Positions 4,376 through 61,555 of a DNA stretch of 64,000 nt are shown one piece after another (position 1 is the first letter of the stretch; every line of letters starts with the position of its first letter). A program made the position numbers and the translations under genes. Origin of the DNA: a phage; the sequence record OZ346205.1, one strand, 5' to 3'. The notes under the pieces are model-generated. The model was not told where the DNA came from and searched no databases. It saw only the letters and a list, made by a program, of their open reading frames with translations.

Positions 4376-6799
4376 ATGAGTATGTGGTCTTTCGATTTTG
4401 AGTCATCCGGTTTGCTGGAAGACCCAGATCTTTATTATCACTGCGGTCTGTTTAAAGAGCTGAATAAGAACCGTTTTATGCTGTTCCTTCCTCTAAATGA
4501 CCGCACACACTACTCCGAGGAGGATATAGAAAAGGCTAAGAACTTCATTCTGTCAAAGAAAACTCTTTATAAAGATTTTGAAGTTCGCATAGCAGATTTT
4601 TCGGAGTTGGAAGGTTGGCTTACAGGCAATTCTGACTGGTCACCAACAGCTTTGAACTGCCATAACTGCTACAGTTATGACTTTATGCTAATGGAAAGAT
4701 TATCCGGTATTCATTTTGATATGTTCCGTGATCCTAAATGCATGGGGACTATCAACGACCACCAGGTTAACCTGTTTGATACGTTGGCTATGAGCCGAAT
4801 CTTGTGGCCTGATCGCCCTTTACCAAAAGGTTGTCCGGACGCTGTATTCAACCCGGTTACTAAGAAAATGCAACCTGTTGGTCCTCACGGCCTTATGGCA
4901 TGGGGCTACGCCCTTGGTAACCAGAAAGTTCAAATTGATGACTGGCGCGATCTTCCGTTGTGGAAGTATGTGGATCGTGTATTCGAGGACGTTATCATCC
5001 AGGAGCTGCTCTGGAAAGAGCTGGTAGCGGAATCAAAAGGTGTATTCTACGGCAAATCTGACATGCAGAACTTTATGTACGATCCAGCCAAAGAGAAGCC
5101 GAAAGGGTTCAAGAAGATCACCTGGAAGAACGCATTACGTCGAGGCATGCTGCAGCACTTCCTGATGGAGCTGCAGGCCCGTCAGGGTGTATACTTCGAC
5201 ATAGATGGAGCTATTGCTTTACGTGACCGTTGCGATGCGTGGATGAAAGAAATCGCTGATCGTGTTGAACCACAACTACCTTTAAAAGAGCTGTCAATGT
5301 CTCAGCGGCCCAAGTTCCCTGAAAAGCCGTTTAACCAAGACGGGACAATCTCTAATAATGGTTGGAAATGGTTAAAAGATAAGCTTGGCTATCCTGTAGA
5401 CATGAGTGCTTTAGAGTTCAAAGCCCCGCCTAAGCGAGCATTTACCTCTACAGGAGATGTCAGCAAGATGGGGATAAAATGGTGTGAAGAGATGGGCTGC
5501 AAAGACCCCGATAAGATGGCTGATTTCTTGAGAGGCTATATTAAGGGCACCTCCACACCACAACCCTTACCTAAAGAGCTGATGGATCAGGCAATAAGTG
5601 ATCTGCAGCAGAAGCGAATGCCTGACTGCAAGATACCTATGAAAATCAGCAATCAGGACGACATCAAGCGATACCTAATCAGTGCTGGTTGGCTCCCAAC
5701 AATGTGGAGAACTAAAGATGTAACTAAAGACAGCAAGAAGAAAGCTTTACCTGATGCAGATGTTGATGCACGAGTATATGCATATATGGACGAGCTTTTG
5801 GAGTCAGAGTATTGTGACCTAATTATCAACTTCTGGAACAAAACTGATGCTAAGTTCCAGACAACCGTGCACAAGTTCCGAAGCTTTCCTAACTCCGAAA
5901 GGATTAAAAAGGAAGTATTCGGGAAAATACGTAGAAAAGCCAGGGCACTTATTACTTCTCCGCAACTGAAAGATACGTTTGGACACCTATGCCCAAATCT
6001 TGAAAAATTGAACGGAGAGATGGCTAAAGATATCGTCTTGTGGTTATCATTGCGAAACCGCAGATCGGTCCTTGATCCAATCAAGGAGGATAAGGTTGAT
6101 ACTGGTCTTCTTAATCACCCACGTTTGAAGATTGACCATAAGCTTCCTGCTAAAAGCTCTGGATTAACAAACACTTCCAGACAGAAACACAGTATTTGTG
6201 CAAACATGCCTAAACCATCTCCTAAAGTGGTTATGGGTAAAGAGATGCGTAGTCTGTGGGGTGTTCCTCCGGGATACTTTGAGATCGGTATTGACGGGTC
6301 CAACTTAGAGCAGCTTATCGGGGCTTGGGGTGCCTTTGAGTTCGACAACGGCCTGTATTATGATGTTGTAAGTAACGGAGACGCACACCAAAACAATGCT
6401 GAGGCATATACAAAAGTGGCAGGCAGAGAGGTGTCCCGTAACGACGGTAAACCTATCACGTATGGGGTTATGTACGGGGCACAAAAAGATAAAGTTGCAG
6501 ATATGTTGGACATCTCCCCAGAGTTGGGACAAAGGGTAATCGATGCACTCTGGGATGCCAACCCAGGTCTTAAGGGGCGCAAAGAGGATCTGGAGAAATT
6601 CTGGGAAGCAACAGGTAAGAAGTTTATCTACTCTTTTGATGGTCATGCTATCTGGACCCGATCTAAACACTCTTTACTTAATGCATACCAACAAAATGGC
6701 GGTGCATCGTTGTGTGACTTAGTTGGAATACTCATGCACCACCAGATGGTGAAGCGTGGGTGGTACGATGAAGGTGTTCGTCGTATTATTTATTACCAT
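4376..6799 (+). CDS. DNA polymerase, family A (Pol I-like), exon 1
   Basis: 3'-5' exo motif FDFESSG; motif A IDGSNLEQ; motif B R..GKPITYGVMYG; frame ends ...RRIIYYH just before motif C. Confidence 0.8.
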
Positions 6800-7075
6800 A
6801 AATAACATTGTGGCTTCATAGAGTAATCTATGTCGAATAACCTCTTTAACTGCGGGAAGCCTAAACCTTATGGCAAGGTAATCCGCAACGAAGCGCTCAA
6901 AAGAGCGAACGCTCAGAGGCCATTCCGAAAGGAAGTAGACCAGCAAGTGCGGTCGAAATGGGAGGATTCCTGTGGTTGCTTATCATAGGAATATGAGATG
7001 GTCCGATCCTACGTGAAAACGTATGGCTATGCACGTAATGGTGCGGGGTAGCTTAACGACCTACCTGAACTATTG
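6800..7075 (+). mobile_element. group I intron (no ORF) splitting DNA polymerase motif C
   Basis: P-like ACTGCGGGAAGCC (6848), Q-like AATCCGCAACG (6880), S-like GAGATGGTCCG (6995); follows exonic U, ends in G; exon junction YYH|DE restores motif C. Confidence 0.65.
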
Positions 7076-58203: not shown

Positions 58204-58277
58204 ACCAGTAAAAACTTAAATATCTGTACTATAAGGATTCGTATGTTTTATGTTCACTCTGGAACAGAGGTTAGTAA

Positions 58278-58360
58278 CTGTCCGTGATACGGACACTACT
58301 GTCCGTCACGCGGACACATCTGTCCGTAATACGGACACTAACTGTCCGTGATACGGACAC
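58278..58360. repeat. iteron array: 4 tandem palindromes TGTCCGT-N5-ACGGACA
   Basis: Copies start at 58278, 58299, 58320, 58342 (21-22 bp period); followed by an A/T-rich stretch and further inverted repeats to about 58470. Confidence 0.8.
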
Positions 58361-58499: not shown

Positions 58500-58790
58500 T
58501 AGTGTCGGCCCTTCATTGGCACTCGCCTACGAGGGGGCGAGATGCCGGGCCTCCTTGGTGCACACAATAACAGAAGTGCATACATGAAGGTCTGTTAACA
58601 TGTGTGGGAGCGAAGCGATAGCGCAGGCCAAAGGCCGAGCACTGATGTGGACCACCGACGAAAGCTTGCCAGCGCCGTAAGGAGTCGGTTGAGAGTCTCC
58701 CGCGCGAGCTTGGATGAAGTTTATGTGTGGAAACGGACAAGAAGGCCCCTAAATCGCTCCACAGCTATATAAACTATACCAGGTAAGGCA
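58500..58790 (+). other. GC-rich structured non-coding island (candidate ncRNA or leader)
   Basis: No credible ORF; nested inverted repeats, e.g. CCTTCAT/ATGAAGG, GGCACTCGCC/GGCGAGATGCC, GGGAGCGA/TCGCTCC. Confidence 0.3.
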
Positions 58791-58866: not shown

Positions 58867-59445
58867 ATGAGTCCACGCAAAGATGACCGTGAAAAGATTG
58901 CAAAACGTTATCAGAATGAAGAACAGATGGAGAAAACTTTCAAGTGGAAGCCAGGTTTCCAGCGTAATCATTCTAACGCTCGTGATCGTAAGCATCCGGA
59001 TAAGTGGTTAACACCGCCAAATGATGGCATGCAGGTTGGGGATGAGAAGGAGCTGTCACCTGGAAAAGATGGCAACTACATTCGCACTAAGGAAGCAGGT
59101 CCAAAGGATGACAGCTATCTTGTAGATAAGGTTCTTGACGGTGTTGATGTAGGTGTTGACACTGTACGAAACCTTTTTCTTGGTTGGTATCGCACAGGGT
59201 TTTTCGACATCAAGGCTATTCGTCGTGTTTGTGATATTAAAAAGTCTGCCTACGATGATGATTCCCTACATCGCACTCTGAGACAATACTCAGAGAGGTA
59301 CGGTCATCCAGTTATCACTCTTGACGATATTAACGAAGTTATGTATCATGTAGAGGTTGTTGCAGGTAGGTTCGGTGATGCATATCTCGGTATTCTTTCT
59401 GCAAAGGATGAGGTAATGTTAAATAAGATTTACTATGAACGCTGA
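58867..59445 (+). CDS. hypothetical protein
   Basis: GAGGAGG RBS; 192 aa. Confidence 0.55.
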   Translation: MSPRKDDREKIAKRYQNEEQMEKTFKWKPGFQRNHSNARDRKHPDKWLTPPNDGMQVGDEKELSPGKDGNYIRTKEAGPKDDSYLVDKVLDGVDVGVDTVRNLFLGWYRTGFFDIKAIRRVCDIKKSAYDDDSLHRTLRQYSERYGHPVITLDDINEVMYHVEVVAGRFGDAYLGILSAKDEVMLNKIYYER

Positions 59446-59455
59446 GGGGCGATTA

Positions 59456-59644
59456 ATGAACAATCCGGTAGCAAAGAACTGTAATAAATTCAACAAGTCT
59501 GCGATTCACACTGACAGGAAAAAGAGTTGGTTTCCTGACATTGACGAGGAGCTTGAGAGTTACTTTGAAGATTTAGTCACCAATGCAGATGAGGTTGCGA
59601 TTAAAGAATACGCAGACAGGAGGGATAAGGCCGGAATCTGTTGA
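59456..59644 (+). CDS. hypothetical protein
   Basis: ORF 59435..59644; ATG 59456 after GAGGGG. Confidence 0.45.
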   Translation: MNNPVAKNCNKFNKSAIHTDRKKSWFPDIDEELESYFEDLVTNADEVAIKEYADRRDKAGIC

Positions 59645-59720
59645 CAAAAATAATGTTACCTGATAAGATCTGCAATATGATGTGATACAATTTTAACTTA
59701 CGAGGTCTACAGGTAATGCT

Positions 59721-59963
59721 ATGTTTAAGGTTAAGCTCGTTTTTCGTTCCATGAATGAGGATTATTTAGAAGATGAAGGTGAATTTCGTGCACTGGATGA
59801 TGCAATAGATTTTGCCAACGACTTAGCTTGTATGAATACGGGTTATGGGCTATGCTGTTGGGATGGTGGTGTTCAGATCGGTGATAGCAAGATCTTCTAC
59901 TTCTACCCTGAGCCTGATAACAAACAAATTAAGTATGTTTTATTTATTTGTGCTTTACAATGA
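59721..59963 (+). CDS. hypothetical protein
   Basis: ORF track; promoter-like TTGACA/TGATAA pair upstream. Confidence 0.5.
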   Translation: MFKVKLVFRSMNEDYLEDEGEFRALDDAIDFANDLACMNTGYGLCCWDGGVQIGDSKIFYFYPEPDNKQIKYVLFICALQ

Positions 59964-59989
59964 GGTTGTTTTCGTGTATCATGATGAAT

Positions 59990-60250
59990 ATCCAATTTAA
60001 AGATGAATTTGATGGCTTTATCTCCGGATGCTTTGAAACAGGGTTCGGAGAAGGCTGAGTTCCCCTTAGAGGGCTTGATAGTGCACCACACTTAAAATGG
60101 TAGGGGCAGCCAGCACATGACGATGTGACCCCAGCCAACCTGTAATAAGGTCGAGCCAAAGTGCGGTAATGGGCTCTGGTAACCCACTTGTTGGGTCTTG
60201 CTGGTCCAGGACGCTGGACAAGTCGCAGGGAATACCACCCTGCGGCGAAC
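59990..60250 (+). other. GC-rich non-coding island (candidate ncRNA or leader)
   Basis: About 340 nt without credible ORF between two genes; GC-rich relative to surroundings. Confidence 0.25.
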
Positions 60251-60279
60251 TTGACAATCAGTATTTGCTATGATAAAAT
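60251..60279 (+). promoter_or_regulatory. sigma70-like promoter
   Basis: TTGACA - 17 nt - TAAAAT. Confidence 0.55.
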
Positions 60280-60307
60280 CCACCTATCACGTGATAATGG
60301 AGGAAAC

Positions 60308-60646
60308 ATGGCGGATACAACTAAAAAGCGTCGCCGTAGAGGCAGACCTCTGAAAGAGGAGTCCAACGCCATTCAGCTAGAGAAGAACATCCTTGATATG
60401 AAGGAATCTTTTATAGCGATGGTTCCAGAAGCTCACAAAGTTTTAAGAGAGCTGATGTTGGACCCGAAAACCAAACAAAATATTCGTCAAAGCATTGCAG
60501 AGTATGTTCTTGATAAGGCAGACCGAATGCAGGAAGAATATGATGAGATGTTTGGTGAAGAGGAAGAGGTGGTAGTGGAAGAGGCTGAAAAACCAGCACC
60601 TTTTATGCCATTTACTACAGAAATACAGCCTGTTAGCAATAGCTAA
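60308..60646 (+). CDS. hypothetical protein with basic N-terminus (possible DNA-binding; terminase small subunit candidate)
   Basis: ORF 60188..60646; ATG 60308 after GGAGGAA; KKRRRRGRP N-terminus; position upstream of terminase large subunit. Confidence 0.45.
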   Translation: MADTTKKRRRRGRPLKEESNAIQLEKNILDMKESFIAMVPEAHKVLRELMLDPKTKQNIRQSIAEYVLDKADRMQEEYDEMFGEEEEVVVEEAEKPAPFMPFTTEIQPVSNS

Positions 60647-60655
60647 AATATTTTC

Positions 60656-60684
60656 TTGACAAACTTTGCTTAACAGTGTAATAT
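60656..60684 (+). promoter_or_regulatory. sigma70-like promoter for tRNA cluster
   Basis: TTGACA - 17 nt - TAATAT. Confidence 0.55.
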
Positions 60685-60742
60685 TGTAAACATGGTCTCC
60701 CACCTTTTCTGGCGGCTAAGGTGTAAAAGAAAGCCACCCAGT

Positions 60743-60817
60743 GCCCTGTTAGCTTAGTGGATAAAGCAGCGGCCTTCTAAGCCGTTGACACTGGTTCGAG
60801 TCCAGTACGGGGTGCCA
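60743..60817 (+). tRNA. tRNA-Arg (anticodon UCU)
   Basis: Cloverleaf by eye: acceptor GCCCTGT/ACGGGGT, anticodon loop CTTCTAA, T-loop TTCGAGT, encoded CCA. Confidence 0.8.
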
Positions 60818-60821
60818 AATT

Positions 60822-60908
60822 GGGGAGTTATCCCGTAGAGGTAGCGGTGTAGACTGTAAATCTATTGTCATTGCGACTCGGGTGGTTCGACTCCACCACT
60901 CCCCACCA
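60822..60908 (+). tRNA. tRNA-Tyr (anticodon GUA)
   Basis: Acceptor GGGGAGT/ACTCCCC, anticodon loop CTGTAAA, long variable arm, T-loop TTCGACT, CCA. Confidence 0.75.
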
Positions 60909-61022
60909 AATTTATATTTTTAGATGCATAAATAATACAGATAATGGCATTGATATTTATCGTCGTTTATACTAGTCACTAACTGCTCGAAAATCAGTGT
61001 CATTATCAGTATAATTTATAAA

Positions 61023-61113
61023 GGAGGGTAGGGAGCAATGGTGCTCAAGCGGTATTGAAAACCGTCCCGTTGAGGATGACTCGATGATGGTTCGATTCCA
61101 TTACTCTCCGCCA
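61023..61113 (+). tRNA. tRNA-Ser (anticodon UGA)
   Basis: Acceptor GGAGGGT/ACTCTCC, anticodon loop ATTGAAA, long variable arm, T-loop TTCGATT, CCA. Confidence 0.65.
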
Positions 61114-61211
61114 CATTGTTGACCTTGTAATTAAGCGAAAGCCGGAAGCAGAACCGGATTATCAAATGTTACAGTCGTCATCGCCGACTAGCAACATGGT
61201 CAACATACTGA

Positions 61212-61310
61212 GCTAGGTAAGCCCTTTGGCAAGGGCGAGGATTTTTAATCCTGAAAATAGACGAGGTAGTCGTTGAATACATAGGTGGTTCGATTCCATC
61301 ACCTAGCACC
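61212..61310 (+). tRNA. atypical tRNA-like gene (99 nt; anticodon loop TTTTTAA, UUU?)
   Basis: Acceptor GCTAGGT/ACCTAGC, D-arm GCCC...GGGC, T-arm GGTGG-TTCGATT-CCATC, but 30-nt extra region and imperfect anticodon stem. Confidence 0.4.
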
Positions 61311-61315
61311 TTTTT

Positions 61316-61391
61316 GCTGATGTAGCACAATCGGTAGTGCAATTGATTTGTAATCAATAGGTTGTAGGTTCAAGTCCTGCCATCAGCACCA
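61316..61391 (+). tRNA. tRNA-Thr (anticodon UGU)
   Basis: Acceptor GCTGATG/CATCAGC, anticodon arm ATTGA-TTTGTAA-TCAAT, CCA. Confidence 0.8.
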
Positions 61392-61392
61392 A

Positions 61393-61467
61393 GGCCCTGT
61401 AGCTGGAAGGTTCAAGCAAGCGACTCATAATCGCCAGACGGTGGTTCAATTCCACCCAGGGCCACCA
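61393..61467 (+). tRNA. tRNA-Met (anticodon CAU; could be Ile-lysidine type)
   Basis: Acceptor GGCCCTG/CAGGGCC, anticodon loop CTCATAA, T-loop TTCAATT, CCA. Confidence 0.75.
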
Positions 61468-61478
61468 AATAGTAAATA

Positions 61479-61555
61479 CTCCGCGTAGCTCAGCTTGGTA
61501 GAGCGCCTGATTTGGGATCAGGAGGTCGAGTGTTCGAATCACTCCGTGGAGACCA
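61479..61555 (+). tRNA. tRNA-Pro (anticodon UGG)
   Basis: Acceptor CTCCGCG/CGTGGAG, D-arm GCTC...GAGC, anticodon arm CCTGA-TTTGGGA-TCAGG, T-loop TTCGAAT, CCA. Confidence 0.8.

Follow-up and report, generated by a model that had tools for sequence, protein, structure and literature searches.

Phage structured RNAs and the rV5 locus

Among the non-coding RNAs of phages are the stable RNAs rnaC and rnaD of T4, which lie near tRNA genes, and the RNA anti-CRISPRs, small non-coding RNAs that act as decoys against host defences. GOLLD and ROOL, phage RNAs of 500-800 nt and of unknown function, are likewise found beside tRNA genes and are represented by Rfam families (PMC12286853). T4-type phages also carry PeSL cassettes, each a simple stem-loop joined to a promoter, which occur in many copies per genome and whose sequence is lineage-specific (PMC2839356, PMC4122927). 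Phage phiTE, a relative of rV5, deploys pseudo-ToxI as an RNA decoy against host defence (PMC3475682).

The window considered here, a stretch of 64,000 nucleotides from sequence record OZ346205.1, is that of Escherichia phage rV5 (DQ832317, Vequintavirus), with 99.7% identity over 59400-60750. Ahead of a tRNA cluster it holds an element with a 45-nt core set within ~100-190 nt. Like GOLLD, ROOL, rnaC and rnaD, the element is phage-borne, structured, placed in or near tRNA clusters and probably processed together with the tRNAs. Unlike GOLLD and ROOL it is short, and the window and related loci match neither family; unlike rnaC and rnaD, its T4 representative lies outside the tRNA cluster, in the denV-vs.8 spacer. 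It resembles the PeSLs in being intergenic and conserved, in occupying plastic early regions, often directly before a sigma-70 early promoter, and in having apparently been exchanged between genomes, but differs in its number (1-2 per genome), in the absence of an internal promoter and in a large invariant unpaired stretch that is maintained across phage families. Identity with a PeSL cassette was accordingly rejected, given one copy in the 64-kb window, 1-2 per locus, and a promoter-free element.

The element shares with riboswitch aptamers and mRNA operators a short junction in which near-invariant unpaired nucleotides are framed by covarying helices, as well as alternative pairings of the core and, in T4-like phages, a position just upstream of a start codon. 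It departs from them in having no consistent downstream gene, a promoter being interposed in rV5 and an ORF being absent in Klebsiella phages. Finally, as a small non-coding RNA of virulent phages it recalls pseudo-ToxI and the RNA anti-CRISPRs, decoys whose sequences are fixed by the host component that they imitate or bind. Unlike ToxI and pseudo-ToxI, which consist of tandem repeats of ~34-36 nt, it forms no repeat array (Tandem Repeats Finder returned zero tandem repeats over 59900-60350) and has no match in E. coli genomes. With moderate confidence, we regard it as a small plus-strand RNA of ~185-255 nt that belongs to an undescribed family in virulent Enterobacteriaceae phages and would be a separate RNA acting in trans.

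Composition and boundaries of the gap

The gap that contains the element runs from the end of ORF75 (59721-59963) to the start of ORF74 (60308-60646). The sequence-only reading had put it at about 340 nt and called it GC-rich, and both descriptions hold: it measures 344 nt, and its GC content is 0.517 in 59990-60250 and 0.559 in 60040-60250, against a mean of 0.430 (sd 0.035, 261-nt windows) for the window as a whole. An equal GC content is reached by 0.7% of 261-nt windows and by 0.16% of 211-nt windows. Among these few is a second island near 58500, to which the gap had been likened. That likeness does not extend to the sequence level, and the covariance model described below finds no second copy of the element in the window. 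The 58500-58780 island (GC 0.55), with the annotated ORF78 and its GTG start, occurs only in Vequintavirus (119 records); it has zero motifs in common with the RNA element, and its sole Rfam match is weak and a chance one.

Two plus-strand promoters, one of them a candidate, flank the region. Inside the gap the rV5 GenBank record annotates only P74, the promoter of ORF74 (60251..60279; TTGACA-17-TAAAAT with an extended -10), which scores 11/12 in a consensus scan. Its position is conserved in a divergent rV5-like clade (L033/L079, L068 and L080, ~66% identical to rV5 here), and it bounds the RNA on the 3' side. The same kind of scan yields a candidate sigma-70 promoter on the 5' side (59954..59982; TTTACA-17-TATCAT, 10/12 matches), which would place a transcription start near 59989. 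It is kept in rV5-like relatives, with the variant TATGAT in L090, and overlaps the start of a micro-ORF.

This plus-strand micro-ORF (59981..60058) is taken from the ORF list and encodes 25 aa, or 36 aa when read from the TTG at 59948. It matches PHROG 6828 (E 3.5e-9), so that the earlier description of the gap as free of ORFs fails at the 5' edge while standing for the GC-rich part, where neither Pfam nor PHROGs gives a match. The micro-ORF includes a 21-mer, AAAGATGAATTTGATGGCTTT (59999-60019), which encodes KDEFDGF and is identical in rV5 and the divergent clade. In that clade the 21-mer forms an 8-aa ORF, MKDEFDGF*, upstream of the clade's own promoter; a single synonymous GAA-to-GAG change is seen in this stretch in L019 and L096. 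The micro-ORF probably lies outside the RNA core.

That the GC-rich part itself encodes protein, as a small gene or as an N-terminal extension of ORF74, is extremely improbable. Several GenBank records do place a "hypothetical protein" over the region, the vs.8 annotation of T4T begins inside the core, and an in-frame TTG at 60188 extends ORF74. Against this, ORFs in 60060-60283 have zero Pfam or PHROGs matches, and indels of +1, +3, +1 and -6 nt separate close relatives in the GC-rich part, a pattern incompatible with a reading frame. Furthermore, vs.8 starts ~100 nt downstream in most T4-like records, and the ATG within GGUAAUGGG is missing where the sequence reads GGUAAAGGG or GGUAAGGGG. 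The T4T gene (L002 1491-1603) has its annotated start inside the RNA core, and since other T4-like records begin vs.8 ~100 nt further on, the long T4T start is probably wrong.

Conserved core

The conserved core occupies 60129..60181 on the plus strand, as defined by a match to covariance model R1 (69 bits, E 4e-18) that is the only one within the 64-kb window. Comparison across phages points to a closing helix, P4 (CCA 60135-60137 with UGG 60170-60172), which has 3-5 bp across the family. Stacked directly on P4 is a hairpin, Pa, in which ACCU (60138-60141) pairs with AGGU (60148-60151) around the loop GUAAUA. The 3' side of the core is formed by an invariant 18-nt stretch, CGAGCCAAAGUGCGGUAA (60152-60169), with the consensus CGAGCC-N-AAG-Y-GCGGUAA. 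Over 41 distinct aligned segments, ~30 of the 45 core positions are invariant or nearly so.

In the P4 plus Pa model, 93.7-93.9% of cells pair, compared with 85-85.8% in shuffles, and the observed pairing or covariation was reached by 0 of 500 shuffles; these statistics come from sequences that are mutually related and in which Pa and the unpaired stretch hardly vary. The result is reproduced with 50 distinct rows that the covariance model retrieved. With this model 62 instances score 45-75 bits, and decoys that carry the pattern alone are rejected. The closing pair of P4 takes five forms (AU, CG, UA, UG and GC), and G-U pairs appear as UG at alignment columns 8-45 and 9-44. These G-U pairs, together with the constant orientation of the element relative to neighbouring genes, place the RNA on the plus strand. 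Because the flanking helices keep pairing while their sequence changes, the comparative evidence indicates that the element is a structured RNA, with base pairs maintained through compensatory changes beyond controls. The structured RNA proposed for this gap from its sequence is thereby borne out, as a conserved core with covarying helices common to hundreds of other phages, and the comparative alignment put forward at the same time as a check for covariation was productive both for P4 and Pa and for the outer helix P1, described below.

The core can also be drawn as a nested alternative fold (ACC/GGU, GUA/YGC and GGU-CGA-GCC) that pairs equally well, and the core may thus be bistable; a few one-sided changes fit the nested alternative. 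In the rV5 sequence RNAfold places a local hairpin, Pb (GAGCC/GGCUC); this was rejected, as it has zero covariation and 73% pairing, and the P4 closing helix is therefore preferred. The single-sequence folding energy is no better than that of shuffles (z -1.2 for the plus strand and -1.7 for the minus strand), so that the structural case rests on comparison.

Peripheral helices

In nearly every lineage a further helix, P1, ends 1-5 nt upstream of P4, with a sequence that is different each time. In rV5, P1 pairs GGGG (60103-60106) with CCCC (60129-60132) and encloses a 7-nt internal loop, CAGCCAG (60107-60113), and the hairpin P2. Compensatory changes across clades, all read on the plus strand, give GGAAC/GUUCC in the divergent rV5-like clade, GGGAA/UUCCC in T4, GGGAG/CUCCC, AAAGG/CCUUU, AAAGC/GCUUU and AAAGA/UCUUU in other T4-like phages, GAGGG/CCCUC in EcoPhCCP1, and GAGUG/CACUC and GAAUG/CAUUC in Klebsiella phages. 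When a fixed 5-nt window is used, a perfect Watson-Crick partner is present in the sequence's own upstream 60 nt for 11 of 16 distinct 5-mers, as against 9% in cross-controls; a free longest-helix test of the upstream region against the core flank is without power. P2 (CACAU 60114-60118, loop GACG, AUGUG 60123-60127) shows a compensatory change between clades as well, from CACAU/AUGUG in rV5 to CUACG/CGUAG in the divergent clade, with the GACG loop unchanged.

On the 5' side lies a module (60063..60101, plus strand) that hardly differs between rV5 and the divergent clade, despite an overall identity of only ~66%. By comparison it comprises H1 (CCCU/AGGG, 60063-60073), the sequence GGCUUG (60072-60077) and H2 (ACCA/UGGU, 60085-60101). 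RNAalifold predicts pairing between GGCUUG and the core's invariant CGAGCC, both strands being without variation. Further upstream, a hairpin H0 (CUCCGGA...UUCGGAG, 60022..60050, plus strand), present in the MFE and centroid folds, is found only in rV5, its place in the divergent clade being taken by a promoter.

The 3' region (60176..60204, plus strand), as seen in folds and by-eye pairing, contains CUGG (60176-60179), H5 (ACCCA/UGGGU, 60182-60196) and GCUGG (60200-60204). Inspection by eye suggests a candidate pseudoknot, P3, in which CCAG(C) of the P1 internal loop would pair with CUGG or GCUGG after the core. Analogous loop-to-tail pairings can likewise be read in L033 (GUGAGGG/CCCUUAC), L080 (UGAGG/CCUCA) and EcoPhCCP1 (CUCCGG/CCGGAG). 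Two plus-strand hairpins of the MFE and centroid folds follow, H6 (GUCCAG-GACG-CUGGAC, 60204-60219), which has the counterpart GCUGG-GGACGGA-CCAGC in the divergent clade, and H7 (GUCGCAGGG-AAUACCA-CCCUGCGGC, 60222-60246). On the 3' side of the rV5 RNA there is no U-tract after H7, and a terminator scan was empty.

Distribution among phages

A BLAST search with the gap as query, run on 50,697 phage records, gave 805 matches, 119 of them full-length and rV5-like. The other ~690-700 cover only positions ~163-209 of the query (60131-60173), at 90-97% identity over 38-47 nt, and have unrelated flanks. The T4-like carriers include Tequatrovirus, Dhakavirus, Jiaodavirus and others, with T4 itself among them, and in them the element always occupies the spacer that precedes vs.8 and follows denV or an internal-protein gene. 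Further carriers came from pattern scans of IMG/VR and metagenomes. Among the carriers are the Klebsiella N4-like phage KpCHEMY26 (Schitoviridae), ~46-kb Klebsiella phage contigs, the 44-kb coliphage EcoPhCCP1, in which the element is 3' of the endolysin gene, contigs of 75 kb and 96 kb, and the divergent rV5-like clade. Two copies are present in PKO111, and tandem pairs in one T4-like clade. A core of 45 nt that is ~95% identical across phage families sharing nothing else implies very strong selection. Eighteen records labelled "Campylobacter phage" (within MG065635-MG065690) are 98.6-99.6% identical to rV5 here; mislabelled hosts or contaminating coliphages seem likely.

Bacteria gave a different picture. 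BLAST of the element against 5,426 E. coli genomes found zero matches, and a pattern scan of 185,579 representative bacterial genomes found 12, all without the upstream half of the motif. Against the covariance model, 11 of the 12 fail the E 0.01 cut-off and L048 is marginal (21.5 bits, E 0.004). With the rest of the motif absent and covariance scores unconvincing, these are taken as chance matches.

Patchy spread through unrelated phages, as near-identical sequence within unrelated flanks, could also mark an element that works as DNA, such as a site of recombination or homing, a site bound by a protein or the footprint left by a small cassette moving between phages, with the RNA fold incidental. 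The duplicated copies in PKO111 and one T4-like clade, and the HNH endonuclease gene that adjoins the element in L041, are in keeping with this idea. The compensatory changes, the one-strand G-U wobbles and the constant orientation to transcription, however, point to selection on RNA; terminal repeats or target duplications were not seen, and neither bacterial genomes nor E. coli prophages yielded the element. A purely DNA-level role is thus very improbable.

The Rfam search proposed for the gap identified no known family: Rfam 15 on 59964-60307 was empty both at gathering thresholds and at E <= 10, and the homologous elements of T4T, JS10, PKO111, L029, L031, L033, L034, L037 and L041 had zero family matches. 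Over the window and these nine related loci the search yielded only tRNAs, weak matches ascribed to chance and, elsewhere, a group I intron. No description of the element was found, by sequence or in the literature on rV5 and T4 non-coding RNAs and on PeSLs; the supplement of a catalogue of 10,006 candidate phage RNAs (PMC10690425) was outside this search. The element would accordingly constitute an undescribed family of phage structured RNAs, for which an earlier listing in that catalogue is possible.

Separate RNA or leader

The genomic setting bears on whether the RNA is made for itself or as part of an mRNA. In rV5 the near-consensus P74 (60251-60279) separates the RNA from ORF74, and the divergent clade has the same layout. 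In that clade H1 is preceded at ~8 nt by a second strong promoter, TTGACA-17-TATACT, and the 3' end of the RNA lies immediately ahead of P74; with a promoter of its own and this 3' limit, the unit is self-contained at ~170 nt. In L034 the core is followed, ~35 nt on, by an intrinsic terminator. In Klebsiella phages the element is enclosed in a perfect ~20-bp stem formed by repeat arms, which also enclose the acceptor piece of a two-piece tmRNA next to it, after which tRNAs follow; judged from sequence, this arrangement looks like RNase III-type excision of separate stable RNAs. rV5 itself has upstream only the consensus promoter at 59954-59982, and is without a terminator after the RNA.

Linkage to tRNA genes is common, with 7 of 9 lineages outside the T4-like group carrying them within 1.3 kb on the same strand. 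In the window, ARAGORN and Rfam place 7 tRNAs at 60743-61555, of which the first, tRNA-Arg, starts at 60743. Neither program finds a tRNA or tmRNA in the gap, and the two-piece tmRNA of the Klebsiella phages is a separate neighbouring module. The genes downstream of the element are mutually unrelated (vs.8, ipII, ORF74, a 629-aa ORF, an HNH endonuclease, or none), and beyond the rV5-like phages the element never adjoins an ORF74 homologue. Examination of vs.8 and of the neighbouring ORFs 74-77 gave zero functional clues from protein families.

The two-piece tmRNA was noted at L037 1737-2330 and L043 2400-2650, in the ~46-kb Klebsiella phages and KpCHEMY26, where it is missed by ARAGORN. Its tag frames read ANEEMYLAVA* and ANDDVVLMAA*, and its pieces are bracketed by the same repeat arms as the RNA element.

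Taken together, the promoters, the L034 terminator, the Klebsiella stems, the tRNA linkage and the unrelated downstream genes favour a separate RNA over a dedicated leader. From this context we infer a separate stable RNA, which would be made or cut out alongside the tRNAs and would not be the leader of any one gene. The sequence-only reading had offered, as one option, a long 5' leader of the basic protein encoded by ORF74. This proposal finds no support, given P74 between the RNA and ORF74, a promoter that is kept in the divergent clade, and given that elsewhere the same RNA precedes unrelated genes or none.

A more general cis-acting role, in which a leader or riboswitch-like element would present the core as an aptamer or protein-binding operator for the downstream gene (vs.8 or ipII in T4-like phages, ORF74 in rV5), is rather unlikely. 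Its best ground is the T4-like lineage, in which every instance ends 15-45 nt before the start codon of vs.8 or ipII, ahead of the Shine-Dalgarno sequence and ATG; for that lineage a cis role is plausible. The order in L034, of element, intrinsic terminator and then ORF, is that of a classic attenuator, the two mutually exclusive core folds (built from two ACC/GCC and two GGU strands) would suit a switch, and core conservation is as high as that of an aptamer. However, rV5, the divergent clade and EcoPhCCP1 all have a sigma-70 promoter separating the element from the ORF that follows, while in the Klebsiella phages no ORF follows and a processing stem encloses the element among tRNA and tmRNA genes. 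The downstream genes are also functionally unlike one another (vs.8 a P-loop protein, ipII an internal head protein, the 629-aa ORF and the HNH endonuclease), and Rfam riboswitch matches are zero.

The same surroundings could accommodate a module for RNA processing or stability, a compact fold that would punctuate polycistronic early transcripts, protecting the 3' end of the upstream mRNA or directing cuts by RNase III, E or P, and would thereafter be functionless. The element always lies between transcription units, right after the stop of a gene (denV, ORF75, endolysin) and often directly before a promoter; in the Klebsiella phages it has long flanking stems, and the RNAs that neighbour it depend on processing. 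A plain structural block, however, has no need of ~30 nucleotides that are invariant across phage families, and ordinary PeSL terminator/promoter cassettes do vary in sequence between lineages (PMC4122927). A role confined to processing is therefore distinctly unlikely, and a separate RNA that acts in trans remains the preferred reading.

Possible trans-acting function

Action in trans is suggested by the extreme degree to which the element is conserved between phage families with nothing else in common, by its absence from hosts and by its place among tRNA and tmRNA genes. The RNA would be produced or excised as a separate stable species beside the tRNAs and would then offer its invariant stretch to a factor that all these infections share. 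The likeliest candidates for this factor are a protein or RNA, conserved in enterobacteria, that belongs to the translation or tRNA machinery, and a component of host defence. A bolder proposal, unlikely as it stands, is that of a universal decoy or effector, in which the invariant loop would bind up a single factor conserved among enterobacteria (such as an enzyme or nuclease directed at tRNA, or a component of translation or ribosome rescue), and the same RNA would have passed horizontally into unrelated virulent phages (T4-like, rV5-like, N4-like and others) as a tool for host takeover or anti-defence.

The core and the T4 and rV5 elements were compared with E. coli rRNA, tmRNA, RNase P RNA, 4.5S RNA and 6S RNA, and neither similarity nor complementarity was better than with shuffles. 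Likenesses that had been picked out by eye, to the 16S 530 loop (GCGGUAAU), to RNase P (GUGCGGUAAG), to the tmRNA PK region and to the 23S GAC, are all at the level of shuffled controls. A match of 4.5S RNA positions 60-79 with GCAGCCA-GCACAUGACG (60107-60122, P1-P2), at 16 of 17 nt with a 2-nt gap, was set aside as rV5-specific and post hoc: other clades do not have it, and its p is ~0.03 when the whole island is considered.

Two cases of possible mimicry were also rejected. The Pa loop equals the tRNA-Tyr anticodon loop CUGUAAA/U, an identity to be treated as a lead and not as evidence, and CGAGCCAAAG resembles a class II D-loop; mimicry of tRNA-Tyr is contradicted by the wrong order of these parts, by a loop of 6 nt and not 7, and by T4 being without a tRNA-Tyr. 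The sequence GAGTTCCCC has, at 60058-60066, a 9-nt identity to the E. coli type I-E CRISPR repeat, but is not kept in the divergent clade.

Were the decoy or effector proposal true, T4, the most studied phage, would have a functional non-coding RNA that went unnoticed, at a place where the T4T record reads the start of vs.8. Action in trans would also reveal a host factor with which many virulent coliphages and phages of Klebsiella have to cope, and would supply a compact handle for phage engineering or therapy. Even a cis element would mean corrected gene starts in many GenBank records and a candidate RNA family for the databases. Direct tests are within reach, as T4 and rV5 genetics and E. 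coli hosts exist.

Other features of the window

Three further features were noted in the window. Just downstream of ORF79, a putative GntR-like regulator, four tandem repeats of 21-22 nt (58275-58360), each with the palindrome TGTCCGT-N3-ACGGACA, look from their sequence like an operator array. Within the tRNA cluster, a tRNA-like gene at 61212-61310, absent from the rV5 annotation, is assigned a 4-base anticodon (atcc) by ARAGORN and scores 35.5 bits with the Rfam tRNA model. The group I intron reported by Rfam lies at 6790-7025 (64.7 bits), and the rV5 record joins the large terminase gene from three pieces.
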